A stretch of 36,224 nucleotides of DNA from an uncultured Bdellovibrionales bacterium (GTDB taxonomy: Bacteria; Patescibacteriota; Minisyncoccia; Moranbacterales; UBA11712), in NCBI GenBank assembly GCA_964519445.1, contig CAZFIH010000002.1, positions 6,130-42,353 on the forward strand, given 5' to 3'. Numbering within the stretch: position 1 is the first letter of the stretch; the number at the start of each line of letters is the position of its first letter. The notes under the pieces were generated by a model. It made no database searches, had not been told where the DNA came from, and saw only the letters and a list, made by a program, of their open reading frames with translations. Of the stretch, positions 2,361 through 24,854 are shown piece by piece. A program made the translations under genes and the position numbers.

Positions 2361-3077
2361 ATGTCTGGACACTCCCACTGGGCGGGGATAAAACACAAAA
2401 AAGCGGTTCAAGACGCGAAACGCGCCAATGTTTTCACAAAAGCCGCGCGTCTGGTGACGCTCGCGGCACGCGAAGGCGGAGAAAATCCGGAGACGAATTT
2501 CAAACTGCGCCTCGCCATTGATCAAGCAAGAGCTGTTAATATGCCGAAAGAAAATATCGAACGGGCAGTGAAGCGCGGTACGGGAGAACTCAAAGATGCA
2601 GCCGCTATCGAGGAAGTGCTTTATGAAGCCATGGGGCCGTCGAATATCGCTATTCTCATCAAGGCGGCAACCGATAACAAAAACCGAACCTTGGCAGGGA
2701 TTCGAAACGTCATTGAAAAAGCCGGCGGGAAAATGGTCCCGGCCGGAAGTCTGAAGCACTTGTTCAAGCAAGTTGGGATTATTTGCGTGAATACGCAAGG
2801 CGCAGACGCAGACGAACTGGAACTCAAGGCCATTGACGCCGGCGCGCTCGACACTATTTTTCAAGGAGAGCTTCTTCAGATTTACACAGCACCTAAAGAG
2901 CTCCAAAAAATCAAAGAGGCTCTTGAAAAAGAAGGAGCGCAAATCGACAACGCCGGCATCATTTTTCATCCCTTGAATCCCATCGAAATCGACGAACACA
3001 CAAAAATTGATTACGAAGTGCTGATTGGAAAACTCGACGAACTCGACGACGTGCAGGAAGTTTACGACAACTTATGA
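2361..3077 (+). CDS. yebC: YebC/PmpR-family DNA-binding transcriptional regulator
   Basis: MSGHSHWAGIKHKKA... is the signature N-terminus. The length is 238 aa. The gene sits directly upstream of ruvC, overlapping it by ATGA, which is the conserved arrangement. Confidence 0.95.
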   Translation: MSGHSHWAGIKHKKAVQDAKRANVFTKAARLVTLAAREGGENPETNFKLRLAIDQARAVNMPKENIERAVKRGTGELKDAAAIEEVLYEAMGPSNIAILIKAATDNKNRTLAGIRNVIEKAGGKMVPAGSLKHLFKQVGIICVNTQGADADELELKAIDAGALDTIFQGELLQIYTAPKELQKIKEALEKEGAQIDNAGIIFHPLNPIEIDEHTKIDYEVLIGKLDELDDVQEVYDNL

Positions 3078-3565
3078 AAATATTAGGTATTGACCCCGGA
3101 ACCGCCACGACTGGCTGGGCGGTGGTGGAAGAAAAAAAAGGAAATCCGAAGCTGGTAGCTTGCGGTTGTATAACGACTTCAAAAACGAACTCCGACGCCG
3201 ATCGGCTTCTTGAAATAGGTAAAGATTTGGAAACTATCGTTAGAAAATACAAACCCTCTGAAGTGGCCGTGGAAGATATTTTTTTCTTCAAAAACCTCAA
3301 GACCGTAATCACCGTCAGCCAGGCCCGCGGGATAGTCTTGTATGAGCTCGCCAAAAAGAGAATCCCGATTCAAAACTACACCCCGCTCCAAGTGAAACAA
3401 GCTCTCACCGGTTACGGCCGGGCGGAAAAAAAACAGATTCAGGTCATGGTGAAAAATATTTTGAAACTGAAGTGCGTTCCCCAGCCGGATGACGCCGCCG
3501 ATGCCGTAGCAATAGCTATATGTCACATAAACTCACGAAAAACTCGCGAATTAAAGAACGAATGA
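3074..3565 (+). CDS. ruvC: crossover junction endodeoxyribonuclease RuvC
   Basis: MKILGIDPGTATTGWAVV, VAVEDIFF and DAADAVAIAICH carry the RuvC catalytic acidic residues. Length is 163 aa. Confidence 0.93.
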   Translation: MKILGIDPGTATTGWAVVEEKKGNPKLVACGCITTSKTNSDADRLLEIGKDLETIVRKYKPSEVAVEDIFFFKNLKTVITVSQARGIVLYELAKKRIPIQNYTPLQVKQALTGYGRAEKKQIQVMVKNILKLKCVPQPDDAADAVAIAICHINSRKTRELKNE

Positions 3566-3645
3566 AAAGCGAATGAGAGCGAACTTTCTAGCATGTTCAC
3601 ACTTCATTTGCTCAAATTCGTTGTGATTCGCACGGTATTCGCGAG
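3543..3645. repeat. inverted array of helically phased CGAAT / ATTCG motifs spanning the ruvC 3' end
   Basis: CGAA(T/C) starts at 3547, 3559, 3570 and 3580. ATTCG starts at 3616, 3626 and 3637. The outer 9-mers CTCGCGAAT (3543-3551) and ATTCGCGAG (3637-3645) are perfect reverse complements. Confidence 0.6.
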
Positions 3646-3659
3646 TCCTCATAATTGAC

Positions 3660-3708
3660 AAAGCCCCCGAAATACCGGTATTATAAAGAAAAACAGGGGC
3701 TTTTTTTA
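3660..3708 (+). terminator. rho-independent terminator candidate downstream of ruvC
   Basis: AAAGCCCC (3660-3667) pairs with GGGGCTTT (3696-3703) and a T7 run follows. The long loop contains the perfect 12-nt palindrome AATACCGGTATT (3671-3682). Confidence 0.45.
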
Positions 3709-3720
3709 TTTAAGCATGGT

Positions 3721-3816
3721 GCTAATCTGCTAACCTTATGCATGCCAATCAACGAATTGCTAATCTACGAATAGAAGTATTCGTGATTAGTTGATTAGTG
3801 TTTATTCGTTGATTAG
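3721..3816 (+). promoter_or_regulatory. cluster of GCTAATCT / ACGAAT / ATTCGT / TGATTAG motifs upstream of the 7TM gene
   Basis: GCTAATCT occurs at 3721-3728 and 3759-3766. CTAATCTACGAAT (3760-3772) faces ATTCGTGATTAG (3779-3790) as an imperfect palindrome. TGATTAG also occurs at 3792-3798. ATTCGTTGATTAG at 3804-3816 ends 12 nt before the ATG at 3829. Confidence 0.4.
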
Positions 3817-3828
3817 CATCGTACCTTT

Positions 3829-4473
3829 ATGAATCAATTCGTGTCTCTTGCCCTTGCCAACGGCGTGCCGCTGGATACTCTGGTTCTGGTCTTGATTTTG
3901 CCGATCATTGTCACGGTAATCGCCTTTTTCCGCCAAATTATCGGAATCAAGGCGTTCGGCATCTATACGCCGGCTATCATCACTTTCGCGTTTCTGGCAA
4001 CGAACGAAATAAAATACGGCATCACTATTTTCGTGACCGTCATCGCAATGGGAACAGCTTCCCGCTACATTTTGAAACGCGCGCGCCTCCTTTATCTCCC
4101 CCGCGTCGCTATCATGATCACTATCGTGGGGCTTTCCATTCTTTTTCTCCTCTTCATTGGAGGGATCTGGAACCGCACGGGGCTGGCCAGTGTTTCCATA
4201 TTTCCAATTCTTATTATGATTACCTTGGTAGAAAAATTCATCGCCGTTCAAATCGAAAAAGGAAACCGGTCCGCCGTAATTCTCTCCATCGAAACCCTTC
4301 TTATTTCCGTAATCGGATATTATATCGCCAGCTGGGGATACCTCATAAACTTCCTCCTTACTTATCCGTGGGCGGTCCTCTTTACCATTCCCGTGAATAT
4401 TTTTCTCGGAAAATGGACGGGCTTGCGGCTTTCGGAATACTTTCGCTTTCGTCAAATCATCAGACCCAGATGA
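3829..4473 (+). CDS. 7-TM membrane protein of the type usually fused to an inactive transglutaminase (7TM_transglut-like), here without that domain
   Basis: 214 aa with about 7 hydrophobic helices. The FRQIIGIKAFGIYTPAII and GKWTGLRLSEYFRF motifs resemble the 7TM partner of ATPgrasp_ST ligases. The stop overlaps the next start (ATGA at 4470-4473). Confidence 0.7.
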   Translation: MNQFVSLALANGVPLDTLVLVLILPIIVTVIAFFRQIIGIKAFGIYTPAIITFAFLATNEIKYGITIFVTVIAMGTASRYILKRARLLYLPRVAIMITIVGLSILFLLFIGGIWNRTGLASVSIFPILIMITLVEKFIAVQIEKGNRSAVILSIETLLISVIGYYIASWGYLINFLLTYPWAVLFTIPVNIFLGKWTGLRLSEYFRFRQIIRPR

Positions 4474-5882
4474 GTCTTTTTTTTCAAAACAGCCGCGATA
4501 TTTTGGGCATGAACGCCCGAAACTTGAAGTTCGTCAGACCGCATAATCTTCGAAAGGCGAGAAGATTGGCTGACGACAAATTGCTTAGTAAAAAAATCCT
4601 CAAGAAGAATGAACTGCCCGTTCCGGAACTAATCGCCAAAGCCAAACACAAAGAAGAGTTGGACAATTTTGACTGGGATAAACTTCCCAACAGCTTTGTC
4701 TTGAAGCCCAATCGCGGATTTGGCGGTGAGGGTATATTGGTAGTTTATGGAAAGAAAAAAAATGTGGAAAACACCTGGGTCAAAGCGGACGGTTCGGCTG
4801 TTTCTGTTGAGGACATCAAAAATCACGTCCGGAATATTTTAGACGGAAGTTTTTCCTTGGCAGGCGTAACCGACGTTGCTTTTTTTGAAGAGCGGCTGAC
4901 GCTTCTCAAGCTTTTCAAACCCTACGCCTATAAAGGAATTCCCGACATTCGGATAATTGTTTACAATAAAGTGCCGACAATGGCCATGCTCCGTCTCCCC
5001 ACTCGTGAATCGGAAGGAAAAGCCAATCTCCAGCAAGGAGCTATCGGCGTGGGGATCGATATGGCCACCGGAGTGACAACAACTGCTGTCTTGGGAAAAG
5101 GAAAAGCCATTGAATATCTTCCCGGGACGCGGCTTCTCCTTTCCGGAGTTCGAATCCCCTACTGGAAAAATATTTTGCGAATGGCCGTACAAGCCCAAAT
5201 TGTTTCAAAGCTCGGTTTTTTGGGAGCTGACGTGGCCATTGACCGCGACCGCGGACCGGTTTTTCTGGAGCTCAACGCCCGGCCGGGACTTTCCATCCAG
5301 ATCGCCAATCTCGATGGTCTCCTCGGAAGATTGCGCCGAGTGGAGGGCCTCAAAATAAAAACAGTCGAAAAAGGCGTCTCGGTCGGAATGAATCTTTTTG
5401 GCGGAGAGATCGAAGAAGAAATTGAGGACATTTCCGGAAAGAGAATCATCGGCACGGTGGAGAAAGTGAAGCTCATCGGAAAAGATGAGAAAGAAATCGA
5501 AGTGGAAGCGAAGATTGATACGGGAGCAGGTTTTTCTTCCATTGACACCGAGCTTGCCAGACAACTTGGTTTTGAAAAAACGATCGCGGAGTATGAAAGA
5601 CTGGATCTAGACTATGAAAAATTAAAAATGCTCAAAAAAGAAGACAGAGAAACCCTTTTCAAGAGTAAAGACATCCCCGATTTGGCTGATACGGCTATTA
5701 TTCATTCTTCCCATGGAACAACGTACCGCCCGATGATTTCAGTTCGAATGATAATAGAATCAGTCGAGGTACCTGCCAAGGTGTCAATAATAGACCGATC
5801 TCACTTGAAATATCCAGTGATAGTAGGGCAACGTAATTTAGGTAAATTTTTAATTGATACTAGCAAAGTAAATAAACAATAA
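4470..5882 (+). CDS. alpha-L-glutamate-ligase-like ATP-grasp enzyme (ATPgrasp_ST type) fused to a C-terminal RimB-like retropepsin domain ('Zn_protease' family)
   Basis: ILGMNARNLKFVRPHNLRKARRLADDKLLSKK, KPNRGFGGEGI and FLELNARPGLSIQ mark the ATP-grasp part. The C-terminal part has GTVEKVKL...EAKIDTGAGFSSID (DTGA at 5517-5528) and YPVIVGQRNLGKFLID. I prefer the start at the ATG at 4470; the upstream extension to 4368 overlaps the 7TM gene. Confidence 0.85.
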   Translation: MSLFFQNSRDILGMNARNLKFVRPHNLRKARRLADDKLLSKKILKKNELPVPELIAKAKHKEELDNFDWDKLPNSFVLKPNRGFGGEGILVVYGKKKNVENTWVKADGSAVSVEDIKNHVRNILDGSFSLAGVTDVAFFEERLTLLKLFKPYAYKGIPDIRIIVYNKVPTMAMLRLPTRESEGKANLQQGAIGVGIDMATGVTTTAVLGKGKAIEYLPGTRLLLSGVRIPYWKNILRMAVQAQIVSKLGFLGADVAIDRDRGPVFLELNARPGLSIQIANLDGLLGRLRRVEGLKIKTVEKGVSVGMNLFGGEIEEEIEDISGKRIIGTVEKVKLIGKDEKEIEVEAKIDTGAGFSSIDTELARQLGFEKTIAEYERLDLDYEKLKMLKKEDRETLFKSKDIPDLADTAIIHSSHGTTYRPMISVRMIIESVEVPAKVSIIDRSHLKYPVIVGQRNLGKFLIDTSKVNKQ

Positions 5883-5892
5883 TAATAAAGTT

Positions 5893-6849
5893 ATGAAGAA
5901 GGTAGTCGTTGTCTACAAAGGAGATGATTGGCACAAGGAACTGCCCATGAAGAAAGCTCCCGCCACCCGAGAATCTTTTGAGGATTGGCATGAACGAGGG
6001 CTAAAAAACGGTGTCGAAATGTACCGGGCAAGCATTCAATGGTTTGATCTAGAAAAAGGCATCTTCAAAAAATCGTGGGCTTTTCGAGACAAAAAATGGA
6101 TTAGAGTAAAAAAACCCGTTAAGCCGGACCTTATTTTTGATAAAATCGCGGGAAGATACGACTTCGAGCTTTTCGGTTTGAAGCAGAATATTGAAAGAAA
6201 AGTAAAGATTTTCAATCCCCCGCTTTTTCGTACTCTCCTCGACAGCAAGCTGTCTCACTATCTTGTTTTCAAGGAGTTTATGCCCGATTCTTATCTTGCG
6301 CACACAAAAAAGGATTTGAACGCTGCCCTAAAAAAGATAAAATCTCCGAAAGTCGTGATAAAGCCTCTTTATGGATCAGGCGGTTTCGGAATCCTAATAG
6401 AGAAAAAAAAGAACATAAGCCGAAAGCGCATAAATTATCCTGTTTTTATCCAAGAATTTATACCGGCAAAAAGAGGTGTGCCGGGTTTTACGAAAAAAAA
6501 CGCCCTGGCAGATCTGCGACTGGTTTATATGAACCACAAATTAATCTACGCCCTTTCCCGGATTGCCAAACGAGGATCGCTTTTCACGAACTTTCACCAG
6601 GGCGCCAAAGCCGTCCTCGTTCCGCGTAAAAAAATTCCCGTCAGCGCTTTGAAAACTTCGAAAAAAATAATCGACAGGCTGAAAATATTTCCTGAAGCAA
6701 ACTATTCCATAGATTTTCTTTTCACAAATTCGGGAAAGCCGATTCTTATGGAAATTAACACGACCCCCGGATTTGACCTCTTGAGAATTGTTGGAGATGA
6801 AAAAACAAAAGAAAAAAACTTCAAGGAGTTTACAACCGTAATTCCCTAG
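5893..6849 (+). CDS. second ATP-grasp ligase (RimK / YheC-YheD-like)
   Basis: VVIKPLYGSGGFGILIE, DLRLVYMNHKLIYALSRIAKRGSLFTNFHQGAKA and ILMEINTTPGF fit the ATP-grasp nucleotide-binding core. Length is 318 aa. Confidence 0.7.
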   Translation: MKKVVVVYKGDDWHKELPMKKAPATRESFEDWHERGLKNGVEMYRASIQWFDLEKGIFKKSWAFRDKKWIRVKKPVKPDLIFDKIAGRYDFELFGLKQNIERKVKIFNPPLFRTLLDSKLSHYLVFKEFMPDSYLAHTKKDLNAALKKIKSPKVVIKPLYGSGGFGILIEKKKNISRKRINYPVFIQEFIPAKRGVPGFTKKNALADLRLVYMNHKLIYALSRIAKRGSLFTNFHQGAKAVLVPRKKIPVSALKTSKKIIDRLKIFPEANYSIDFLFTNSGKPILMEINTTPGFDLLRIVGDEKTKEKNFKEFTTVIP

Positions 6850-6854
6850 CTCGC

Positions 6855-7904
6855 ATGACAATACCCAAGAGAAAAATCAAAGTGGCTATGGTCGCGCCTC
6901 CGTTTGGCGCCATAGGCGGTCCGGAGGTAGTCGTCCAGAATCTTTCACACGCCCTTGCAAACAAGAACGTTCACGTCACCCTTTTTGCTCCGGGAGACTG
7001 GAAGATAAGGTCGAGAAATATAAAGCACATCAAAACTCTCCCTAAAAGTCTCTGGAATATGAAAGGGTTCCGGGAGCAAACCCGTAGGGTGAGAAGGAAT
7101 TTGATCATCTCGAGCCAAATTCAAGTTTTGTTCAGCAAAGAAAAATTTGACCTTATTCATCTTCATTCGTCGACTTACGCCTATTCCATAGGCGTTTTTT
7201 CCGAAATACCTTGCCTGGTCTCTTTTCACAGTATGATTACGATTCCGGAATACAAGCAGATTAGAAAAGCCGGGATTGTTCCGATTTCTCTTTCCAGATG
7301 GCAAAAAGGGAAACTAAAAACTGCTGCGACAATCTGGAACGGCGTGCCGGTGAAGAAAAAACTCTACTCACTTGACCGGGGATCCTACCTTATCACCGTT
7401 GGAAGGCTCACTGACCAAAAGGGAATTGATACTGCTATTCAAGTGGCCAGAAAAACAAACAAGAAACTGCTAATTTTCGGCAGGATCGGAAATACAGAAA
7501 AAAGGCAGACTTACTACCAAAAGAAAATAGAGCCTTATTTAGATAGAAAGAAAATTATCTATATGGGCGAAGTTTCAAATGAAAAAATTTTTTCCTACTT
7601 AAGGGGAGCAGAGGCATTACTGTTTCCAATCAGAAGACCGGAAGTATGTCCCATGATTATCGCGGAATCTCTCGCCTCCGGAACGCCGGTTATTGGCACA
7701 AAAGTAGACCCCCTTCCTGAACTTCTAGGAAAAGACAAAAAAATCGGATTTCTTTCGGACGAATTGAAAAAACTCATCAAGGCAGCAAAAGAAACAGATA
7801 AGTTTGACAGGCAAGCTTGTCGCGATTATGCAGAAAAACATTTTGACAGTGATATTATGGCCGCGAAGTACATGGGCTTGTACAAGAAAATTACCAAGAC
7901 TTAA
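6855..7904 (+). CDS. glycosyltransferase family 4 (GT-B, group 1)
   Basis: ITVGRLTDQKGID and EVCPMIIAESLASGTPVIGT match the EX7E-type C-terminal motif region. Length is 349 aa. Confidence 0.85.
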   Translation: MTIPKRKIKVAMVAPPFGAIGGPEVVVQNLSHALANKNVHVTLFAPGDWKIRSRNIKHIKTLPKSLWNMKGFREQTRRVRRNLIISSQIQVLFSKEKFDLIHLHSSTYAYSIGVFSEIPCLVSFHSMITIPEYKQIRKAGIVPISLSRWQKGKLKTAATIWNGVPVKKKLYSLDRGSYLITVGRLTDQKGIDTAIQVARKTNKKLLIFGRIGNTEKRQTYYQKKIEPYLDRKKIIYMGEVSNEKIFSYLRGAEALLFPIRRPEVCPMIIAESLASGTPVIGTKVDPLPELLGKDKKIGFLSDELKKLIKAAKETDKFDRQACRDYAEKHFDSDIMAAKYMGLYKKITKT

Positions 7905-7920
7905 AGCGTTCTAAAAAAAC

Positions 7921-8715
7921 ATGACGGAACTCGCTATTCTTTTTTGGTTCTACAAAAAGCCCCTGGTTTGCAAAAACCATCTTACCATCCTGAAAAAACA
8001 CAACCCGGGATTAAAAATCTACGGGCTGTTTGGCGGCAAACCCAGCGAGTCATCCAAATACAAAAGTATTTTAAATGACTATTTAGATGACTTTTATGCT
8101 TTTCCTTCTGGCAAGTCAAGATGGAAGTGGCTTAACGGGGATTTAATGATTCTTGACTGGTATCAAAAGCGCGGAAAAAATTTGCCCTGGGATAGCCTCG
8201 CAATTGTTCAATGGGATCTGCTCGTCCTAACCGATCTTGGGAAAAAGTTCGAAAAAATAAAGAAAGGTCAATTATATCTCTCTGGGCCGCGGACACTAGA
8301 AAATAACTTAGAAAATCGATGGCTATGGACAAGACCGGGCAGCATCTATAGAAAAGAATATATTGATTTTTCAAACCACGTGAGGGTTAATCACGGTTTC
8401 AGAAACAAAATGCGTTGCTGCCTATTCATATTTCAAATTTTTCCAAGATCCTTTCTTGAAAAACTTGCCAATACAAAAAACTTCCAGCTAGGATTTCTTG
8501 AGTATAAAATCCCGACTTATGCCAGGATATTCAAAATTCCCGGGTTCAAAAAAGAAATTGGCTGTCACTGGTTTGACGAAGAAATATCAAAAAGCTCCTT
8601 TCCTCTGAATGCTGACTCAAATGAAATAAGTAAATCCTACATAATTTCGGAACTGGAGAAAAAGCGAGGATACAGGATTTTTCACCCCTTTACTAAAATT
8701 TGGAAAGTATCATAG
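7921..8715 (+). CDS. hypothetical protein (no motif recognised)
   Basis: 264-aa ORF, co-directional, 16 nt after the GT4 gene. It has no TM segments or catalytic motifs that I can name. Confidence 0.6.
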   Translation: MTELAILFWFYKKPLVCKNHLTILKKHNPGLKIYGLFGGKPSESSKYKSILNDYLDDFYAFPSGKSRWKWLNGDLMILDWYQKRGKNLPWDSLAIVQWDLLVLTDLGKKFEKIKKGQLYLSGPRTLENNLENRWLWTRPGSIYRKEYIDFSNHVRVNHGFRNKMRCCLFIFQIFPRSFLEKLANTKNFQLGFLEYKIPTYARIFKIPGFKKEIGCHWFDEEISKSSFPLNADSNEISKSYIISELEKKRGYRIFHPFTKIWKVS

Positions 8716-8732
8716 AAACAATTTCCCAAAAC

Positions 8733-10085
8733 ATGACCAATAGACTCGGAGTCGAGCCAATAGACGCAAGATGGTTTGCACGGTTTTCCAAAATCGCCTC
8801 CTTTCAGGTATATGAATATTTTGCGGGGGATCAGAAATATCGCGACCGGCAGAAAAAGCTGTTTCTCGAGGACAAAGCTGAAAATCCGAAATTGGATTAT
8901 CCTCTTCTTGGCTCTCGACAACTTCAGCAAAAAAGAATCAAGCTGAAAAAACTTTTGGATGATATTGCGGAACAAGAGAAAAATTCTCTGGTTCGCCGAG
9001 CTTATCAAAAAAAGATAAAAGAAAAAATAACAGGAATCGATTTGCTTCTTGCTTCTCAAAGGAAAAATTGGAAAATTTTTTCCAAAAACTGCCAAAAGCT
9101 CTACAGCCGTCCGACTCTTCAAGGCCAGGGACATACTATAAGCTGGCTGAAAAAAAAGCTTGACCAGGCAGAAAAGAAAAATTATTTCGGAATTTCTGAA
9201 GACAAAATAGTCGAACTTGAAAGTTTTATTTTCAATTGGACCAAAAAAATTCCTTCCAAATACAGGCGTATAAAAAAGCCGAGAAACGCTATTTTTCAAA
9301 AGGCGAGAAAAAATTTCCTGGATGATTTCGGGAAGATATTTCAACCCGCGAAAAAGAATCAGGCACCGTTTGACGCAGTCGCGACAAGCAAAATATTTAA
9401 CTCGTCTTTAGAGTTGGGAGGTTTTCCTGATTGGAAAGCGAATGTAGCCAGGAGCAATTCGATAAGTATCAGTGTCGACATCGGGCGAAAGCAAATAAAA
9501 ATTCCCCACAGGAAAAAACTGTATCTTTCTGATTTGAAAAGCCTTATCGCTCATGAAATCGGGACTCACGTGGTTCGTCAATCCAACGGAGAAAAAAGCG
9601 GCCTGTTCCTTCTTGGCGTCGGTTTGGCTCGCTACGAGCAGGGCGAAGAAGGCATCGCTACTTTTCGAGAGCAATTGACCCGGCCACAGTTTGACGATTT
9701 TCTTGGTTTTCCGGGATTTTTGCCAATCTGCTTGGCTCTCGGCTCTGATGGGAAAAAAAGAAATTTTCGGGCGGTTTTTGAGATGCTTGAGGCAATTTTC
9801 TTTCTTCTCAAGATGCTTGGCGGGAAAAAATCGGCTAAAGCGAAAAGGGAAGCAAGGGAGGAAGCCTGGGAAAGATCAGTCCGTACTTTTCGGGGAACGG
9901 ACTGCTCTACTCCCGGGACATGCTTCATGAAAGACATTATTTATCGCGAGGGAAATATAAGAATTTGGCGTCTTGTCTCGAATAAACCCTCTCTAATGAA
10001 AGATTTTAATATTGGAAAGTACGATCCGGCTAACCCCGAGCATCTCGAAATCATCGAGTCGCTAAAAAAACTCTCTCCAGATTAG
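8733..10085 (+). CDS. DUF1704 / MATCAP-like (QEGLA-motif family) putative metallocarboxypeptidase
   Basis: HEIGTH (an HExxxH motif, 9552-9569) is followed by YEQGEEGIATFRE (9639-9659 region), which resembles the family's QEGLA motif. I prefer the ATG at 8733; a TTG at 8700 is the alternative start. Confidence 0.72.
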   Translation: MTNRLGVEPIDARWFARFSKIASFQVYEYFAGDQKYRDRQKKLFLEDKAENPKLDYPLLGSRQLQQKRIKLKKLLDDIAEQEKNSLVRRAYQKKIKEKITGIDLLLASQRKNWKIFSKNCQKLYSRPTLQGQGHTISWLKKKLDQAEKKNYFGISEDKIVELESFIFNWTKKIPSKYRRIKKPRNAIFQKARKNFLDDFGKIFQPAKKNQAPFDAVATSKIFNSSLELGGFPDWKANVARSNSISISVDIGRKQIKIPHRKKLYLSDLKSLIAHEIGTHVVRQSNGEKSGLFLLGVGLARYEQGEEGIATFREQLTRPQFDDFLGFPGFLPICLALGSDGKKRNFRAVFEMLEAIFFLLKMLGGKKSAKAKREAREEAWERSVRTFRGTDCSTPGTCFMKDIIYREGNIRIWRLVSNKPSLMKDFNIGKYDPANPEHLEIIESLKKLSPD

Positions 10086-10137
10086 TGCATAGCCTAAAAA
10101 AAGCATCGGTTTTTAATATTCTTCCCAAAGATCGTCT

Positions 10138-10638
10138 ATGGTCAAGATTATCTCCCTAAAAAAACCGACAAAAAACGACCTTCTTCGTCTGATGCGAATG
10201 CACAACAAATTATTTCCTCTTTCCAGGTGGAACGTAAAGGGGTTGAGTGAATATTTTTTCGATAAACATTATCGTCCGATCTGCTTCGTCATATATTTTA
10301 ATAAAAAATGCGCCGGCTATATAATAGGAAGACCGCCCCCAAGCAACAAAAGATCTTTCAATCTAATATCCCTTGGAATCAAACCGAGATATCGCCGAAG
10401 GGGACTAGCAATCCTTCTGATGAAAAATTTTTACCGTGCTGTTTTGAAAAAAAAGTCTTTTGAAAAGGTTTACCTCCACTTTCGGAGATCAAATGATTTG
10501 GAAAAATTCTACTCGAAATTCGGGTTTAGAAACACTTGTTTGGCCGGAAAACATCCCGACGGCGAGAGAAAATATTACATGGAAGCCAGTCGCAAAAATA
10601 TCGAAAAATATTTAAAATCAAACAAAAAAATAAAATAA
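10138..10638 (+). CDS. GNAT-family N-acetyltransferase (RimI-like size)
   Basis: LISLGIKPRYRRRGLAILLM is a GNAT motif A (R/Q-x-x-G-x-A). Length is 166 aa. Confidence 0.8.
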   Translation: MVKIISLKKPTKNDLLRLMRMHNKLFPLSRWNVKGLSEYFFDKHYRPICFVIYFNKKCAGYIIGRPPPSNKRSFNLISLGIKPRYRRRGLAILLMKNFYRAVLKKKSFEKVYLHFRRSNDLEKFYSKFGFRNTCLAGKHPDGERKYYMEASRKNIEKYLKSNKKIK

Positions 10639-10640
10639 TA

Positions 10641-10778
10641 GTTAAGGTACTCAAGAAAAACCCCGAAGAAGAAAAACGTTTCTCTGTTGGAAAATACGAT
10701 CCTTCGAACCCTCGTCATCTAGCGGCACTCAATCAGCTTCGCATCAGCGACGAGGACTTAGAAAAACTGGAAAAATAG
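10641..10778 (+). pseudogene. relic 3' end of a second DUF1704/MATCAP-like gene
   Basis: The translation KVLKKNPEEEKRFSVGKYDPSNPRHLAALNQL aligns with the C-terminus of the 8733-10085 product (RLVSNKPSLMKDFNIGKYDPANPEHLEIIESL). At the DNA level, TTGGAAAGTACGATCC (10012-10027) matches TTGGAAAATACGATCC (10687-10702). There is no plausible start codon after the GNAT stop. Confidence 0.6.
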
Positions 10779-10847: not shown

Positions 10848-13070
10848 GTGAAAACCATAATCAACAACGCTAAAAAAGCCTTGAACAAGCCTAAAAGGGG
10901 GCGCAAATGGCCGTGGACGCTACTCAAAATATGCGGCTGGACGGCGGCAGCCGGTCTTCTTCTCGCGATCGGCGTTTTTGCCTATTTCGCAAAGGATCTT
11001 CCGAGTCCCGGGAAACTTGACAAGCGCCGGGTAGTCCAGTCAACCAAAATTCTCGACCGCACCGGCGAACATATTCTTTACGAAATTCATGGGGAGGAAA
11101 AACGAACATCTATTGCTTTTAAGGACATGGGAGAAATAATAAAAGCAGCCACCGTCGCTTCGGAGGACCAAACCTTCTACCAGCATCGCGGCGTGCAGTT
11201 CAAAGCAGTCGTGCGCGCAGCCATCTATGACATTCTGGGACGCGCTAGATCCCAAGGGGGATCAACTATTACCCAGCAGCTAATCAAGAATACCGTTCTC
11301 ACTAAAGAAAAAACTTTCACGCGCAAAGTGAAAGAGGTGATTTTGTCCGTCGAACTCGAACAGCGTTTTTCCAAACAAGAAATACTTGAGATGTATCTCA
11401 ATGAAATACCATACGGCTCCAACGCCTACGGCATCCAAGCCGCCGCCCAAACCTATTTTGGAAAAGACGCCCGAAATTTGGATTTGGCGGAAGCGGCCCT
11501 TCTTACGTCTCTGCCGAAAGCTCCAACTTACTATTCACCCTATGGATCTCACCTGGAAGACCTAAAGGCACGCCAGGAATATGTCCTTGACCAGATGAAA
11601 AACATGGGCTATATCACCGAAGAAGACGCCCGGTCCGCAAAAGGATTTGATGTTCTTTCGAAAGTGAAGCCCTTCCGGGAAAACATCCAAGCTCCCCACT
11701 TCGTTATGTATGTCAAAGAACAGCTGGTCGCGAAATACGGAGAAAAGCAGGCTGAAGAGGGTGGGATGAAAGTCTATACGACACTCGACTGGGAAAAACA
11801 AAAAATCGCCGAAGAGGCTGTAAGGACCGGAGCGGCTAACAATGTCAAATACCGCGCGTCCAACGCGGCCCTCGTTGCTATTGATCCCAAAACCGGCCAA
11901 ATCCTAGCCATGGTCGGATCCAAGGATTACTTCGACAAATCAATTGACGGAAACGTCAATGTCGCTATCCGTGACCGCCAGCCGGGATCTTCTTTCAAGC
12001 CCTATGTTTACGCCACCGCCTTCAAAAAAGGATACACTCCCGACACGATCATTTTTGACGTCAAGACGGATTTCGGTACGAAAGAAAAGCCTTATGAGCC
12101 CGAAAACTACTCCAGCTCTTATAGCGGTCCGGTCAAAATGAAAGAAGCATTGGGAAGATCTCTTAATCTTCCGGCCGTAAAGACTTTGTATTTAGCGGGC
12201 GTCAACAATTCCATCAACACCGCCCAGGCGATGGGAATCACCACCCTAAAAAACCGCAGCCGTTATGGATTGTCTCTTGTCCTGGGCGGCGGCGAGGTAA
12301 AATTAGTCGACCATGCCAGTGCTTTCGGAACCTTTGCCGCCGGGGGCGTCCACCATGAAAAAACAGCCATTCTCAAGATAACGGATGCAAATAATAATAT
12401 TATTGAAGAATACCAGGGTGATACCGGAGAAAAAGTTCTTGATAAGGATATATGCGCCCAGATTAGCGCCATTCTTTCCGACAATAAGCTGCGCTCGCCC
12501 GTTTTTGGATCAAACAGCCCCCTGCGCTTCGACAGCCGGCCAGTCGCTGCCAAAACCGGAACTACCAATGAATGGCGAGACGCCTGGACGGTGGGCTATG
12601 CTCCGAACCTGGTTGCGGGGGTCTGGGCTGGAAACAACAATAACACTCCCATGGCAAAAGGCGCCGACGGCGTCTATGTGGCCGCTCCTATTTGGAAAGA
12701 ATTCATGGAAAAAGCGCTTTCCAATATGGCGGTTGAAAGTTTTCCGGAACCCGAAGAAATAAAAACCAAGAAAGCTGTCTTGGATGGAAATATTAGGATA
12801 GAAGAAAAAGAAGTGAAAGTCTGCAAAGATGACGATGGTGATTACTGTCTTCCAAAAAATAATGACTGTCCCGATGATACTGACTCGAAAAAGAAAACCT
12901 TATTCAGCGCTCACAGCATTCTCTATTGGGTGGACAAAGACAATCCGCGCGGAGATATTCCAAAATCCCCCCAAAAAGATCCTCAATTCCAAGCCTGGGA
13001 AAAGGGCATTTTGAAATGGGCCGATAAAGAAGATTTTGACATCAAAAGCGAATTAAAAGAATGTGACTGA
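10848..13070 (+). CDS. class A penicillin-binding protein (bifunctional transglycosylase/transpeptidase, PBP1A-type)
   Basis: GT51 motifs EDQTFYQHRG and GGSTITQQL. Transpeptidase motifs SSFK, SLN and KTGT. An N-terminal TM anchor is present. The start codon is GTG at 10848. Confidence 0.95.
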   Translation: MKTIINNAKKALNKPKRGRKWPWTLLKICGWTAAAGLLLAIGVFAYFAKDLPSPGKLDKRRVVQSTKILDRTGEHILYEIHGEEKRTSIAFKDMGEIIKAATVASEDQTFYQHRGVQFKAVVRAAIYDILGRARSQGGSTITQQLIKNTVLTKEKTFTRKVKEVILSVELEQRFSKQEILEMYLNEIPYGSNAYGIQAAAQTYFGKDARNLDLAEAALLTSLPKAPTYYSPYGSHLEDLKARQEYVLDQMKNMGYITEEDARSAKGFDVLSKVKPFRENIQAPHFVMYVKEQLVAKYGEKQAEEGGMKVYTTLDWEKQKIAEEAVRTGAANNVKYRASNAALVAIDPKTGQILAMVGSKDYFDKSIDGNVNVAIRDRQPGSSFKPYVYATAFKKGYTPDTIIFDVKTDFGTKEKPYEPENYSSSYSGPVKMKEALGRSLNLPAVKTLYLAGVNNSINTAQAMGITTLKNRSRYGLSLVLGGGEVKLVDHASAFGTFAAGGVHHEKTAILKITDANNNIIEEYQGDTGEKVLDKDICAQISAILSDNKLRSPVFGSNSPLRFDSRPVAAKTGTTNEWRDAWTVGYAPNLVAGVWAGNNNNTPMAKGADGVYVAAPIWKEFMEKALSNMAVESFPEPEEIKTKKAVLDGNIRIEEKEVKVCKDDDGDYCLPKNNDCPDDTDSKKKTLFSAHSILYWVDKDNPRGDIPKSPQKDPQFQAWEKGILKWADKEDFDIKSELKECD

Positions 13071-18181: not shown

Positions 18182-18300
18182 ATTGGAGCTCGCTCGTCTC
18201 GCTGGCGAAGCGGGCTTGCCTTGTGAACTTATTTTATGCAATGATTTTCGCGGGGCGACACCTTAATTTCGCGTTTTGATATTTGCATTTTGCATTTTCT

Positions 18301-19749
18301 ATGTCTCTTCCAAGCCGCATTGCCTATAATGTTATTTTCACTTCTTCCGCTAAAGTGCTCGGAACGGTTTTAGCTTTGGTTAGTATCGGCTTCATTACTC
18401 GTTATTTAGGGAAAGAAGGTTTCGGCGAATACTCGATCGTTCTGGCTTTCTTTGCCTTTTTTTCGGCCGTGGCGGATTTGGGGCTATATGCCATTTCAAC
18501 CCGAGAAATTTCCCGTCCTGCCAGCGATGAAAGAAAAATTCTCGGCAACGTTTTTGCCTTGCGGATTGCGGCCTCGATTTTGGTTTTTGTCCTGTCGCCT
18601 CTGGTAATCCTTCTTTTCCCCTATTCCGACCGGGTGAAAGAAGGAGTAGTTCTTGCCGCACTGGCTTATGTTTTTGCTTCCAGTTACTCGGTTTTGATAG
18701 GCCTTTTTCAAAAGAGGCTTGCTATGGATAAAGTAGCCGTCGGTGAATTTATAGGGAAGGTAGTTCAGCTTGGAACAATAGTCATTGTCATTAGGTTGAA
18801 TTTGGGCTTTTTAGCCGTTGTTTCCTCTCTTCTCTTCAATATGCTGGTAAGCTTTGTGATTATCTACTTGTGGTCTAGAAAATTCATAATTTTTTCACCG
18901 CGTATTGACTGGGGCGCCTGGAAAAGATTCATCAAGGAATCCTATCCCGTGGGGGTTTCGGCCGTCATAACTTTCGCCTACTTCAAGCTGGACACAATCC
19001 TTCTTTCTATCCTCAAGACAAGCGCCGATGTGGGCATTTATAACGCGGCCTATAAGGTTGTGGAAAATATTGCCTTTTTCCCGGCCATGATTATTGGATT
19101 GGTTCTTCCGCTCATGTCCCGGTATATTTTTGACAATCGGGAAAAATTTGCCAAGGTGGCCAACAAGACTTTCAAGGTGTTTCTGATATTGTCGGTTCCG
19201 CTTATCGTGGGGACTTTTTTTCTGGCCCGGAGCGTAATCGGAATTATTGGAGGAGCCGAATTTGAAGAGTCGGTTCAAGTGCTTCAGATCCTGGCTTTTG
19301 CCATGGCTTTTATTTTTTTCGGCAATTTTTTTATGCATGTGATTATCGCCGGAAACCAGCAAAAAAAACTGATTGTCATTCTTCTGTTTTGCGCCGTATT
19401 CAATATCGGACTGAATATTTTGCTCATCCCATCATACTCTTATGTCGGGGCAGCCGTAACCTCAAGCCTGACCGAATTGTTGGTAGTGGTTCTATCAGGA
19501 CTGGCTTGCTGGAAACTGGTGAAATACGTTCCTTCGTTCGACAAATCCCTTCCCATCCTTTTTTCCGGAGCTGTGATGGGAATCTTTTTATTTGTTTTTT
19601 CGAATACGCATTTTCTGTTTAGGGCCATCATGGGAGCGTTTATATATTTTCTTTTTCTCTGGATATTCAAGGCTATCAGCGCCGAAGAGATAACAAGCCT
19701 TATAAGCAAGAAAGAGGAAAACCTGCCCAAGTATGATCCACGGATCTGA
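18301..19749 (+). CDS. polysaccharide/oligosaccharide flippase (Wzx/MOP superfamily)
   Basis: About 14 predicted TM helices. The N-terminus NVIFTSSAKVLGTVLALVSIGFITRYLGKEGFGEYSIV is typical of 'polysaccharide biosynthesis protein'. I prefer the ATG at 18301 over the TTG at 18283. Confidence 0.8.
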   Translation: MSLPSRIAYNVIFTSSAKVLGTVLALVSIGFITRYLGKEGFGEYSIVLAFFAFFSAVADLGLYAISTREISRPASDERKILGNVFALRIAASILVFVLSPLVILLFPYSDRVKEGVVLAALAYVFASSYSVLIGLFQKRLAMDKVAVGEFIGKVVQLGTIVIVIRLNLGFLAVVSSLLFNMLVSFVIIYLWSRKFIIFSPRIDWGAWKRFIKESYPVGVSAVITFAYFKLDTILLSILKTSADVGIYNAAYKVVENIAFFPAMIIGLVLPLMSRYIFDNREKFAKVANKTFKVFLILSVPLIVGTFFLARSVIGIIGGAEFEESVQVLQILAFAMAFIFFGNFFMHVIIAGNQQKKLIVILLFCAVFNIGLNILLIPSYSYVGAAVTSSLTELLVVVLSGLACWKLVKYVPSFDKSLPILFSGAVMGIFLFVFSNTHFLFRAIMGAFIYFLFLWIFKAISAEEITSLISKKEENLPKYDPRI

Positions 19750-19777
19750 ATAATATTTTTGCAAATAAGAATAAAAA

Positions 19778-20581
19778 ATGCTTCTTACTGTGCAGATCGT
19801 AAACTACAAAAGCTTCAAGCATCTGAAAGGATGCCTGGGCTCCCTAAAGAGAAGCGGTCAAGAGGCCGGGAGCCTTGAGGCTATCATAATAAACAACGAC
19901 GACCAAGCATTGGATTCCGAACTGGACTTATCAAAGCTTCCTTTTTCGGCGAAAACAGTCGAAGTCGGAAAAAATGTCGGGTTCGGGAGAGCTCATAACT
20001 TGGGAGCGAAAAAAGCTCTTGGAGAATTTCTCCTCTTTTTGAATCCCGATGCGGAAATATCTCCCGGAGGATTGCAAAAACTGGTCAATGTTCTTCAGTC
20101 GAGCGAAAAGATCGGAGCAGCCGGGCCTCTCCTTGTGGGTACAAGCGGGAATGTCGAAGAAGAGCACTGCGGAGCGCGAAAAACCCCTCTTTCAATGATT
20201 TGCGGCAAGGTGCAATGCCGGAAAAAGCAAGAAATTCGATTGGATTCGGTTGCGGAAGTTGATTGGATAAGCGGAGGAGCCATGCTTATAAAAAAAGAAA
20301 TATTTGATAAAGCGGGAGGATTTGACGAGAATTATTTTATGTATTTTGAAGACGTTGATTTGTGTAATCGCGTCAAAAAGCTGGGCTACCGGGTCATGGT
20401 GAATTCCCGGGTGAAATTTCTTCATCGGAGCGGAAAGAGTTTCGCGGACAGCAGGAGCAAAAAAACGTACTATTATGCTTCCCAGGATTACTATATTCGA
20501 AAAAATTTTGGGATTCTTTCGGCACTGGCCGTTAAAGTGCTAAGATTTCCCATATATCTAAAGAACGTTTATTTTGAGTAG
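19778..20581 (+). CDS. glycosyltransferase family 2
   Basis: VQIVNYKS, IIINNDD, FLNPDAEI and YFMYFEDVDLCNRVKKLGY form the GT-A core with the ED...DL motif. Confidence 0.88.
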   Translation: MLLTVQIVNYKSFKHLKGCLGSLKRSGQEAGSLEAIIINNDDQALDSELDLSKLPFSAKTVEVGKNVGFGRAHNLGAKKALGEFLLFLNPDAEISPGGLQKLVNVLQSSEKIGAAGPLLVGTSGNVEEEHCGARKTPLSMICGKVQCRKKQEIRLDSVAEVDWISGGAMLIKKEIFDKAGGFDENYFMYFEDVDLCNRVKKLGYRVMVNSRVKFLHRSGKSFADSRSKKTYYYASQDYYIRKNFGILSALAVKVLRFPIYLKNVYFE

Positions 20582-20600
20582 ATCCTCGTGGATATATTCC

Positions 20601-21884
20601 ATGATTCGATTTCTTTTTCTTGCGACAATTCTCCTTCTTCCCTTCCAGTTCGCGCTTAATATCGGCGAGGATATTGACCTTGTCACGACCCGGGTCTTAG
20701 TGCCGCTGTTATTTTTTCTATGGCTTGTCCGCGGTTTAGCTAGAAGAAAAATTTTCGTTTTCAACGGGGCGGAAACCTGGCTGATTATCTCGCTTATATT
20801 TTTAACCGCGGTTTCTTTATGGGCGGGCATGGATTGGGAAAAGGGCGCAAGGAAGTTCTTGTATCTTTTGACGCTAATTCCTCTTTACTTCTTGGCAAGA
20901 GATTTGTTCCGGGATGGAAAATTTCAACTGTCAGCGATCCGAGCGGTTTGGATAAGCGGCACTTTAGCCGCGGCAGCCGCGATTGTTCAATTTTTTCTGC
21001 CTTTTTTTATTGGGCTGGAAAAAACTCTGCAAATATGGAGGAACACAGCTCCTTTTTTCCTGGGAAAATCTTTCGGACGGCTCGTCTCATCCAACCCCAG
21101 CTGGCTGGTGAACGTTTCGGGCGAAACTTGGATGCGGGCTTTTGGTTTTTTCCCGGATCCTCATGTATTTTCTTTTTTCGCGAGCCTGTGTTTTTTTTCC
21201 GGATTGGGATATTTCGTTTGGGAAAGGAAGATGAAATGGAAAATTGCGGCAGCAATAGGCCTTATGTTGATGCTTTTTTCGCTAGGGCTGACCTTTTCCC
21301 GGGGTGCTTATCTGGGTATTTTGATGGGAATATTATTTTTTTTGCTGATACTTCTTTTTAGGGCGGGAAAATCTGGTAGATTGGCCTTAATTGTTACTAT
21401 AGGATTATTGACGGCGACGATATTTATCTTCCAGCCCATACAGAAGCGAATGGCATCAGTCTTCAGTCTTCGGGAAGGCTCAAATATTGAGCGGATTGAA
21501 AATTGGCGACAGGCGGCTGGCATTGTAGCGGATTATCCTCTTGCCGGGATTGGTTTGGGGAATTATTCCTCTTTTATTGATCCCGAAGCCGAGGAACGGT
21601 CATCGATCTATGCTCACAATATTTTTCTCGATCTCTCGGCAGAAACGGGAATTCTAGGCGGAATACTTTTTTTACTCCTCATTGGCGCAGGGATTTGGAG
21701 AAATATTCTCTCGAGAAATGTCTTGGGTCTAGGATTGGCGTCTGCTTTGGTATATTTTTTGGTACATGGAGTTTTCGATACGCCCATCTGGTCCCCCCAG
21801 GTTTTTGTTGTATTTCTTACAATTCTTGCCTTGGGGGCCGGCAAGAATAGTTTCCAATATGAGGCCAATGCTAAGCAAAATTAG
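20601..21884 (+). CDS. O-antigen ligase / Wzy_C-family membrane protein (copy 1)
   Basis: Multi-TM protein. LTFSRGAYLGILMG and the periplasmic loop GIGLGNY...YAHNIFLDLSAETGILG are Wzy_C-like. Alternative TTG start at 20574. Confidence 0.8.
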   Translation: MIRFLFLATILLLPFQFALNIGEDIDLVTTRVLVPLLFFLWLVRGLARRKIFVFNGAETWLIISLIFLTAVSLWAGMDWEKGARKFLYLLTLIPLYFLARDLFRDGKFQLSAIRAVWISGTLAAAAAIVQFFLPFFIGLEKTLQIWRNTAPFFLGKSFGRLVSSNPSWLVNVSGETWMRAFGFFPDPHVFSFFASLCFFSGLGYFVWERKMKWKIAAAIGLMLMLFSLGLTFSRGAYLGILMGILFFLLILLFRAGKSGRLALIVTIGLLTATIFIFQPIQKRMASVFSLREGSNIERIENWRQAAGIVADYPLAGIGLGNYSSFIDPEAEERSSIYAHNIFLDLSAETGILGGILFLLLIGAGIWRNILSRNVLGLGLASALVYFLVHGVFDTPIWSPQVFVVFLTILALGAGKNSFQYEANAKQN

Positions 21885-24261: not shown

Positions 24262-24267
24262 TGGAAA

Positions 24268-24810: not shown

Positions 24811-24854
24811 AAAATTGATTATTTAATATCGGAAAGTTATCCGGATTTTGAAAA

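Follow-up and report, generated by a model that had tools for sequence, protein, structure and literature searches.

The window described here is a stretch of 36,224 nucleotides (nt) of DNA from an uncultivated bacterium of the Moranbacteria type, a member of the candidate phyla radiation (CPR/Patescibacteria). It harbors a group of seven co-directional genes, g1 to g7, that encode a membrane protein, two ATP-grasp ligases, one of them fused to a retropepsin, a MATCAP-like metallopeptidase and further putative transferases. A sequence-only reading of the same DNA had taken these genes for one candidate system that may add, trim and cap amino-acid tails. It had also suspected a CPR-like host, in agreement with the homologues: the best 120 relatives of g2 are all fusions of about 465 amino acids (aa) with 67-79% identity, and the named ones come from metagenome-assembled genomes (MAGs) of Candidatus Moranbacteria or Patescibacteria. 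The list of open reading frames (ORFs) of the window contains all seven genes on the + strand, with the short overlap and the gaps of 52 nt or less that had been described:

3829-4473, + strand: g1, 214-aa membrane protein, RloB-like seven-transmembrane (7TM) protein
4470-5882, + strand: g2, 470-aa fusion of a RloC-like ATP-grasp domain (aa ~17-295) and a RimB/RloA-like retropepsin domain (aa ~322-465)
5893-6849, + strand: g3, 318-aa second ATP-grasp ligase, divergent RimK-like alpha-amino-acid ligase
6855-7904, + strand: g4, 349-aa GT4 glycosyltransferase (GT-B fold)
7921-8715, + strand: g5, 264-aa protein without Pfam family, predicted to be GT-A-fold glycosyltransferase-like
8733-10085, + strand: g6, 450-aa MATCAP/DUF1704-like gluzincin metallopeptidase, predicted carboxypeptidase
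10138-10638, + strand: g7, 166-aa GNAT acetyltransferase, distantly RimI-like
10848-13070, + strand: PBP1A, class A penicillin-binding protein, downstream boundary of the variable slot; context, and at most a putative member of the system

The stop codon of g1 and the ATG of g2 overlap as ATGA (4470-4473), and by this overlap g2 reads as translationally coupled to g1. From g1 to g7 the intergenic gaps are -4, 10, 5, 16, 17 and 52 nt when g6 is counted from the ATG at 8733, which is the start in the public gene call (450 aa) and not the TTG at 8700; the PBP1A gene follows 209 nt after g7. The genes proper thus end with g7 at 10638. The end coordinate 10778 proposed earlier goes back to an 80-aa ORF (10536-10778, + strand), probably no gene, which overlaps g7 at its 3' end. 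Two ORFs on the - strand, at 3802-4455 over g1 and at 8682-9344 over g5 and g6, are without independent support and probably not genes either. The locus adjoins the replication origin, in the order yebC, ruvC, locus, PBP1A, dnaN and dnaA, followed by rnpA, yidC and jag.

We fetched 21 loci anchored on the fusion gene and mapped the window proteins onto them (loci outside the window carry L numbers). RuvC, the 7TM protein and the fusion are present in 21 of 21 loci, and their genes stand in this order wherever the sequence extends far enough upstream. The fusion is 49-81% identical over these loci, and the three distant ones at 49-51% still keep the order. The start-stop overlap of g1 and g2 recurs in at least 12 loci. 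Since the overlap and the order g1-g2-ligase are found in about 20 independent contigs, the arrangement is not a product of chance, and for the core genes the co-location assumed by the sequence-only reading is repeatedly observed. Behind the fusion almost every locus contains an ATP-grasp gene of about 317 aa, which falls into two sequence clusters and occurs in up to three tandem paralogues; no complete slot is without an ATP-grasp gene.

Beyond this core the locus is hypervariable. We extracted and clustered the ORFs of the interval between the fusion and PBP1A, which measures 1.0-6.0 kb, and annotated them with Pfam. The 14 complete slots have 14 different gene compositions, with GT4 in 4 of them, MATCAP-like genes in 3, GNAT in 3, YdjC in 2 and g5 in 2. 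The slot is a mosaic of GT4 (one or two copies), g5-like, MATCAP-like, GNAT, YdjC, methyltransferase and Mur-ligase genes, together with L-amino-acid-ligase-like ATP-grasps, FemAB-like acetyltransferases, unknown proteins of about 620 aa and an AAA_14/DUF4143 gene; LytR-CpsA-Psr (LCP) genes occur in some slots. Only L004 shows the g3-GT4-g5-MATCAP series of the window, with YdjC in place of the GNAT gene, while L091 has g3-GT4-g5 and L079 has g3-GT4-GNAT-MATCAP. GNAT genes sit in the equivalent slot of L009, L010, L059 and L079, and g5 is a slot gene only in L004, L091 and the window. A GT4 gene follows the g3 orthologue (at least 48% identity) in eight of ten loci and follows the ligase in none of the checked loci that hold only g3 paralogues of 25-39% identity, and hence the ligase subtype and the glycosyltransferase travel together. 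Thus, the locus consists of a conserved core (g1, g2 and the second ligase) and a hypervariable cassette, and the idea of seven genes forming one fixed unit has to be given up. The PBP1A gene (60-78% identical) lies downstream in all complete Moranbacteria-type loci and is absent downstream in the distant loci L019 and L021; we have therefore downgraded its adjacency as functional evidence.

Several single slots are unusual. L055 encodes an 853-aa cyanophycin-synthetase-like protein (2817-5378; ATP-grasp, Mur_ligase_M and Mur_ligase_C) between the second ligase and another ATP-grasp gene with a MATCAP-like gene. In L019 (11405-20707) the fusion is followed by three MATCAP-like paralogues, two L-amino-acid-ligase-like ATP-grasps and two FemAB-like (Acetyltransf_6) genes, so that ligase and carboxypeptidase numbers increase together. 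Homologues of the AAA_14/DUF4143 ATPase lie in or beside the slot in L003 (15029-16165), L060 and L078, directly after a MATCAP-like gene in L066, and in the window upstream of yebC (282-1526). This distribution suggests a mobile passenger that frequents the origin-proximal region.

The family names that the sequence-only reading had given to the proteins (7TM_transglut, ATPgrasp_ST, retropepsin, RimK, GT4, DUF1704/MATCAP and GNAT) were each recovered by profile search. The membrane protein g1 matches PF14402 (7TM_transglut) with an E value of 1.5e-29. Against NF052267 (RloB) the match covers only profile positions 306-507 of 508 and reaches 87 bits, with a cut-off of 900. The protein has about seven hydrophobic segments; the 7TM part is present and the periplasmic inactive-transglutaminase domain is absent. 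Identity of g1 across loci is 48-86%, and many polar residues within the helices or close to them are invariant. Weaker Pfam matches were not found for g1, and even a profile search of the PDB returned no solved homologue.

The ATP-grasp part of g2 belongs to PF14397 (ATPgrasp_ST; E 1.4e-67, 228 bits, cut-off 31), a family that Pfam names "sugar-transfer associated". It aligns over nearly the whole TIGR02291 model (alpha-L-glutamate ligase-like; E 1.8e-84) and its 283 bits stay under the cut-off of 314; RloC itself is presumably a member of TIGR02291. The ATP-grasp motifs D159-I-R and E267-L-N are present. The C-terminus matches the retropepsin family PF05618 (E 9e-9; PF05618/RloA3 at about 1e-9), and a profile built from this domain and its relatives matches the RloA crystal structures 9G58 (5e-16) and 9G59 (1e-14) as well as 2PMA from Legionella. 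A phmmer search of the PDB with the whole of g2 gave a weak Ddl match only, RloA being reached with the domain profile. The invariant residues K348, D350-T-G, R420 and R443 correspond to K46, D48, R114 and R137 of RloA, and the spacing of the two arginines is the same. In RloA the K/R/R residues bind poly-Glu, as determined by mutagenesis, and D48 is catalytic (PMC12239564). Neither a signal peptide nor a transmembrane segment between the two domains was found in g2, and since the retropepsin follows a cytoplasmic ATP-grasp it is cytoplasmic like RimB and not secreted like RloA. Indeed, signal peptides and transmembrane segments are missing from all six enzymes g2-g7. In L091 (3567-4970) the fusion is called as only 354 aa after a gap of 340 nt behind the 7TM gene, maybe due to a frameshift or an assembly error.

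The second ligase g3 matches PF08443 (RimK) with an E value of 1e-11. A profile of its family finds the RimK structures 7QYS, 7QYR, 5ZCT and 4IWX first in the PDB (1.8e-13 to 5e-10), followed by TTLL6, GshB and CphA, and the ATP-grasp motifs K157, D207-L-R209 and E287-x-N289 are invariant. With a cut-off of 21 for PF08443, both g3 (45 bits) and g2 (30.5 bits) pass, the latter without any single stretch passing alone. Both stay below the cut-off of 143 for the RimK model TIGR00768, with 46 bits for g3 and 41 for g2, and the match of g3 to MptN (4e-10) is likewise below the family cut-off. Assignment of both ligases to cyanophycin, glutathione or peptidoglycan stem peptide synthesis had been named as an outcome that would refute the sequence-only reading; the scores of g2 and g3 lie far below the respective equivalog cut-offs (e.g. 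CphA 25 versus 850, GshB 39 versus 272 and Ddl 25 versus 243).

Among the accessory proteins g4 is a typical GT-B fold enzyme, with PF00534, PF13692 and PF13439 all above their cut-offs (Glyco_transf_4 at the N-terminus, Glycos_transf_1 at the C-terminus). Its best solved relative over the full length is the glucosylsucrose synthase TeGSS (7FG9/8X3Q; E 2e-36), the next one the UDP-glucose:tetrahydrobiopterin glucosyltransferase. Both are soluble enzymes with small acceptors; g4 itself reaches no NCBIfam equivalog. The statement that g5 has no recognisable motif remains valid for Pfam, where weaker matches are also absent, and for NCBIfam. Its AlphaFold2 (AF2) model (pLDDT 93, pTM 0.92) retrieves glycogenin, UGGT, XXYLT1 and LARGE1 from the PDB in Foldseek (E about 4e-7, probability 1.0, TM 0.4-0.5), and on this model g5 is predicted to be a GT-A-fold glycosyltransferase-like protein. 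D74, D99 and H255 are invariant and D56-D57 nearly so; a canonical DxD was not identified. Most of the 248 homologues of g5 lie outside Rlo-like loci, either solitary, beside a GT2 gene (in a cyanobacterium) or beside TYW3 in an archaeal contig. The latter, L092 (6001-6795), is an archaeal-looking contig (aS21, Pelota, ELP3) in which a 49%-identical homologue stands between TYW3 and a 2'-5' RNA ligase-like gene. As the g5 family crosses domains in this way, it is not specific to the Rlo-like system. A 263-aa slot protein of L014 was considered as a relative of g5 and rejected (hhalign probability 0.2).

The metallopeptidase g6 matches PF08014 (MATCAP) with an E value of 2.5e-26 and 92.9 bits (cut-off 27). 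Its motifs H274-E-I-G-T-H279 and E305-E-G307 align with the metal site of human MATCAP (7Z5G) and are invariant in 26 homologues. The chains of 7Z5G are the sole significant Foldseek match of the AF2 model (pLDDT 90) in the PDB (E 1.2e-5, probability 1.0). The TM-score is modest (0.35-0.46), and about 210 aa at the N-terminus of g6 form an additional helical region. From these similarities g6 is predicted to be a carboxypeptidase. It belongs to a different subfamily from QEGLA, because it scores 73 bits against the TIGR02421 cut-off of 339. The acetyltransferase g7 (PF00583; E 5e-11, 43 bits, cut-off 20.7) has an intact acetyl-CoA loop, R86-R-R-G-L-A. With 47.9 bits it stays under the cut-off of 86.4 of TIGR01575 (rimI), and therefore it is a GNAT protein that is not demonstrably RimI.

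How firmly MATCAP-like genes are linked to ligases was addressed by an independent scan of metagenome contigs anchored on relatives of g6, in which neighbours were clustered and 39 contexts with at least four genes were obtained. A g3-like ligase or the fusion lies within four genes of the MATCAP-like gene in 17 of these 39 contexts, and several further ones have a weaker ATPgrasp_ST-like gene. The order 7TM, fusion, ligase, (YdjC/GT4/GNAT), MATCAP and PBP1A recurs in L061, L068, L075, L078, L079 and L090. MATCAP-like genes also stand beside a stand-alone pair of retropepsin and ligase (RimB/RimK-like) in other Patescibacteria (L052, L058, L076), and immediately behind the fusion in the distant loci L019 and L021. 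The pairing of ligase and MATCAP-like peptidase is real and recurrent; it is not obligatory. The MATCAP-like gene of one Patescibacterial lineage (L028/L042, 7001-8335) lies inside the division and cell wall (dcw) cluster between ftsW and murG, where the order is Mur ligase, DegT, FemAB, MraY, FtsW, MATCAP-like, MurG, FtsQ, FtsA and FtsZ.

The combination of retropepsin, 7TM protein and ATP-grasp ligase is not without precedent. The rloABC genes of Pseudomonas aeruginosa encode just this triad, the 7TM protein carrying an inactive transglutaminase domain (Lormand et al., mBio 2025; PMC12239564). The sequence-only reading had regarded the triad as experimentally undefined, which these data have overtaken. 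RloA proteases are secreted, and both RloA and RimB cleave runs of at least eight Glu in vitro. A triple protease mutant of P. aeruginosa suffers hypo-osmotic lethality and has defects in cell shape, biofilm formation and beta-lactam tolerance. Deletion of rloB or rloC suppresses the protease-mutant defects (PMC12239564), and it follows that the peptidases remove what the ligase and the 7TM protein, acting upstream of them, make. Matches to RloB were reported to be 96% proteobacterial (PMC12239564), and a RloB homologue of Shewanella affects membrane-vesicle production (PMC12096838). The window shares with rloABC the same three families in one operon (PF05618 retropepsin, 7TM_transglut and a probable TIGR02291/ATPgrasp_ST-type ligase), and g2 retains the catalytic DTG together with the K/R/R residues that bind poly-Glu in RloA. 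However, there are distinct differences. In the window the retropepsin, without a signal peptide, forms the C-terminal part of a fusion with a cytoplasmic ligase, and g1 consists of the 7TM part without the periplasmic inactive-transglutaminase domain. One further ligase, in some loci two or three, and a hypervariable tailoring slot are added, and the host is a Patescibacterium.

Other systems share part of this logic. RimK and RimB likewise pair a cytoplasmic alpha-amino-acid ligase with a cytoplasmic retropepsin able to remove Glu tails. In contrast to the window, they have no 7TM partner, rim loci carry no accessory glycosyltransferase, GNAT or MATCAP-like genes, and g2 and g3 are far below the RimK family cut-off. 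In eukaryotes, ATP-grasp Glu or Tyr ligases of the TTL/TTLL type are opposed by PF08014 gluzincins: TMCP1 and TMCP2 of the MATCAP family are carboxypeptidases with HExxxH and EEG motifs that shorten the poly-Glu chains made by TTLLs (PMC10499314). Here, tubulin is absent and the linkage is genomic, not biochemical. Together with the 17 of 39 contexts, this precedent bears out the ligase-plus-carboxypeptidase logic of the sequence-only reading. A gammaproteobacterial parallel is found in Photobacterium damselae, where a QEGLA/DUF1704 (TIGR02421) peptidase gene adjoins a GshB-like ATP-grasp gene and both are 27- to 38-fold up at low salinity along with rimK (PMC10308900); the partner ligases differ from those of the window. 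Cyanophycin synthetase/cyanophycinase, PgsBCA and TupA resemble the locus in combining ATP-dependent non-ribosomal polymerisation with peptidases, membrane parts and glycosyltransferases, but no window protein reaches their cut-offs and the window lacks a Mur-ligase-type enzyme. Our literature search found no description of the Patescibacterial fusion, the second ligase or the variable cassette, and searches for 7TM_transglut, ATPgrasp_ST and DUF1704 found nothing relevant to their combination. Thus, the core triad is of the known Rlo type, while its Patescibacterial form, which is widespread in public Moranbacteria-type MAGs, is undescribed.

We propose that the locus encodes a Patescibacterial, Rlo/Rim-type, membrane-docked system that uses ATP to ligate, and peptidases to trim, amino-acid chains that are likely acidic, and we give this reading a probability of roughly one half. 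The cytoplasmic ligases g2 and g3 would add alpha-linked residues, which we infer to be most likely of the glutamate type, to a carboxylate acceptor, g3 either extending the chain or adding a different residue. If ligases and peptidases share one substrate, the retropepsin domain of g2 would cut long acidic chains internally in cis and so limit their length, and g6 would trim them from the C-terminus. The 7TM protein g1 might export, anchor or sense the product at the envelope, and g4, g5 and g7 would be strain- or lineage-specific tailoring activities. Given the presence of GT4, GT-A-like and GNAT proteins, we suggest that the acceptor or the product is a conjugate carrying sugar or acetyl groups, or is turned into one. 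At the sequence level the logic of ligase against peptidase is supported. The proposal draws on the conservation of RuvC, 7TM protein and fusion, the recurrent g1/g2 overlap, the hypervariable slot with its low GC content, the kept poly-Glu residues, the RimK and TTLL6 relatives of g3, the MATCAP site of g6, the MATCAP-ligase linkage, the covariation of ligase subtype and GT4, and the suppression genetics of rloB and rloC. Some points weigh against it. The activities, the product and the substrate of the seven proteins are all read from genes. The added amino acid is a guess, because g2 is under the TIGR02291 cut-off and g3 far under that of RimK. Transfer of function from Pseudomonas is indirect, since the retropepsin is cytoplasmic and fused and g1 lacks the transglutaminase-like domain. 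Moreover, MATCAP-like genes also occur without a ligase nearby (e.g. L027 and L030), homologues of g5 occur without ligases, and some slot genes may be unrelated passengers, as GT4, GNAT and YdjC are generic families.

It might indeed be that there is no single system at all, and that a three-gene Rlo-like core merely stands beside unrelated cargo (g4-g7) in a recombination-prone slot near the origin. The lower GC content of the slot genes (0.406, versus 0.458 for the core and 0.481 for PBP1A) would fit, as would the g5 homologues found alone, beside GT2 or in an archaeal contig, the MATCAP-like genes found elsewhere and the likely AAA_14/DUF4143 passenger, which lies in the slot in L003, L060 and L078 and in L066 follows a MATCAP-like gene without a ligase. 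However, the slot genes come time and again from one small set (ligases, GT4, YdjC, GNAT and MATCAP-like genes), the series ATP-grasp, (GT4/YdjC/GNAT), MATCAP recurs in the six loci named above, the g3 subtype co-varies with GT4, and all genes are co-directional with gaps of at most 52 nt, which makes such a chance assembly very unlikely. If the genes do work together, the acceptor is what separates the remaining explanations. Hypervariability, glycosyltransferases, YdjC, LCP genes and the Pseudomonas phenotypes favour an envelope-directed conjugate. Homology to RimK, RimI and MATCAP keeps a protein tail in play. Both ligases would then add Glu or other residues to a specific protein C-terminus, as RimK does on S6, the retropepsin and the MATCAP-like enzyme would remove them, and the RimI-like GNAT would acetylate that protein or a partner of it. 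Among characterised proteins RimK and TTLL are closest to g3, RimI is the top NCBIfam match of g7, the enzymes are all cytoplasmic, RimB and RloA cleave polyglutamylated RpsF in vitro (PMC12239564), and MATCAP and TMCP are protein carboxypeptidases and deglutamylases (PMC10499314). Yet a coupled and conserved 7TM protein, two glycosyltransferases and slot alternatives of the YdjC, Mur-ligase and cyanophycin-synthetase-like types are unexpected for one housekeeping protein target, and a fixed protein substrate is made less likely by hypervariability at strain level. When the proteins of the locus were scanned for an acidic C-terminal tail or a built-in substrate, nothing convincing emerged, and no small conserved ORF was found in the locus. 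For RloA, genome-encoded proteins with acidic stretches were judged unlikely physiological substrates, and post-translationally polyglutamylated proteins were left open (PMC12239564). The "tails on a protein" considered earlier are thus no better supported than non-protein acceptors, with GT4 relatives that act on small molecules and no candidate substrate protein at hand, and we regard them as doubtful.

Mycothiol and bacillithiol are made by the joint logic of GT4, deacetylase, ligase and GNAT, N-acetylglutaminylglutamine amide (NAGGN) by that of GNAT, RimK-like ligase and peptidase, and the RimK-family enzymes MptN and CofF extend cofactors. A soluble glycosyl- or N-acetyl-peptide metabolite, such as a compatible solute, a thiol or a cofactor tail, with the 7TM protein as release or uptake channel, is kept in play by the small-molecule relatives of GT4 (sucrose, 2e-36, and tetrahydrobiopterin as acceptors) and the all-cytoplasmic set of six enzymes. 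The alternation of YdjC deacetylase and GNAT in the slot and the match of g3 to MptN (4e-10) point the same way, as do the ties of rlo genes to osmotic stress (PMC12239564) and the low-salinity induction of the QEGLA/DUF1704 and GshB-like genes in Photobacterium (PMC10308900). The similarities are all under the family cut-offs, though, endopeptidases that require at least eight Glu are ill-suited to a dipeptide-like solute, and hypervariability typifies surface structures more than core metabolites, so that we consider a soluble product unlikely. Peptidoglycan as the acceptor, in which the ligases would extend the stem peptide or side chain, the carboxypeptidase would trim it and PBP1A would use the precursor, is kept in play by the PBP1A gene directly behind the slot in every complete Moranbacteria-type locus and by the dcw context next to FemAB and Mur ligase genes in L028 and L042. 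LCP, Mur-ligase and FemAB-like GNAT genes in some slots are consistent with it, and P. aeruginosa rlo mutants have cell-shape and beta-lactam phenotypes (PMC12239564). However, the adjacency of PBP1A is lost in L019 and L021 although the ligase-MATCAP link persists there, and for this reason it may be no more than inherited gene order near oriC. The dcw context comes from one lineage only, the scores for Ddl, pseudomurein ligase and other peptidoglycan-ligase models are negligible, and we know of no role in peptidoglycan for a poly-Glu-type retropepsin; cross-bridge or precursor tailoring hence seems quite improbable to us. A reading as anti-phage defence system was dropped, since none of the seven proteins matched a PADLOC defence model at E <= 1e-3.

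Two elements lie upstream of g1:

3653-3710, + strand: putative promoter-in-terminator element, promoter-like TTGACA-18-TATTAT hexamers inside a terminator-like hairpin with a T-run
3742-3819 (repeats from 3720), + strand: structured 5' leader or inverted-repeat element immediately 5' of g1

The hexamers of the first element score 11/12, and the predicted hairpin stem is AAAGCCCC/GGGGCTTT. Its pattern, TTGACAAA-N-CCCC, about 28 nt including the -10-like hexamer and then GGGGCTTTTTTTATTT, is kept upstream of the 7TM gene in at least eight related loci (including L004, L009-L013 and L018). It looks like a near-consensus promoter within the loop of a terminator-like hairpin, which would be a compact overlap of terminator and promoter. 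Here the yebC-ruvC unit likely ends and the operon likely begins. The second element contains at least four copies of TGCTAATCnACGAAT in both orientations upstream of g1 (four matches versus 0.22 expected), with one additional copy at 520-534, and the RNA is predicted to fold with -37.4 kcal/mol (z = -5.35). Related loci have long inverted repeats of different sequence at the same spot (L004 9283-9359; L018 1056-1132; L001 9161-9296). The repeats could form a structured leader or represent a small mobile element with inverted repeats; a search of the whole window with Rfam found no known RNA family. Past the origin genes, at 18283-25751, the window encodes a Wzx-like flippase, a GT2, two Wzy_C (O-antigen ligase/polymerase-like) proteins and an SLT transglycosylase fused to a segment resembling a type IV secretion system (T4SS) pilin, and hence further envelope or surface genes near the locus.

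The fusion protein is among the best-conserved non-housekeeping proteins of Moranbacteria-type genomes and has a fixed place by oriC. The locus joins three unconnected lines of work, namely the stress and beta-lactam tolerance linked to Rlo in Pseudomonas, glutamylation by RimK and RimB, and the bacterial relatives of the tubulin carboxypeptidase MATCAP, for which it provides a genomic link to RimK/TTL-like ligases. One may go further and speculate that CPR/Patescibacteria possess a combinatorial amino-acid tail code, in which a conserved, membrane-coupled engine of ligase and endopeptidase would be combined with swappable cassettes that supply extra ligases, carboxypeptidases of the MATCAP type, glycosyltransferases and acetyltransferases. 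Peptide (glyco)conjugates specific to each strain would thereby be written, trimmed and capped, either on the cell envelope or on a protein. Such a code would be a prokaryotic forerunner of the TTLL/MATCAP tubulin code and might set the surface identity of these episymbionts; we think this unlikely. For finding the product the Patescibacterial form is unusually informative, as the peptidase is fused to the ligase and the enzymes are cytoplasmic, and dozens of natural cassette variants can be compared or expressed that differ in ligase number, in GT4, YdjC or GNAT and in carrying one to three MATCAP paralogues. Once identified, the product could account for the Rlo phenotypes of a pathogen and could reveal how the envelope varies among ultra-small episymbiotic bacteria.

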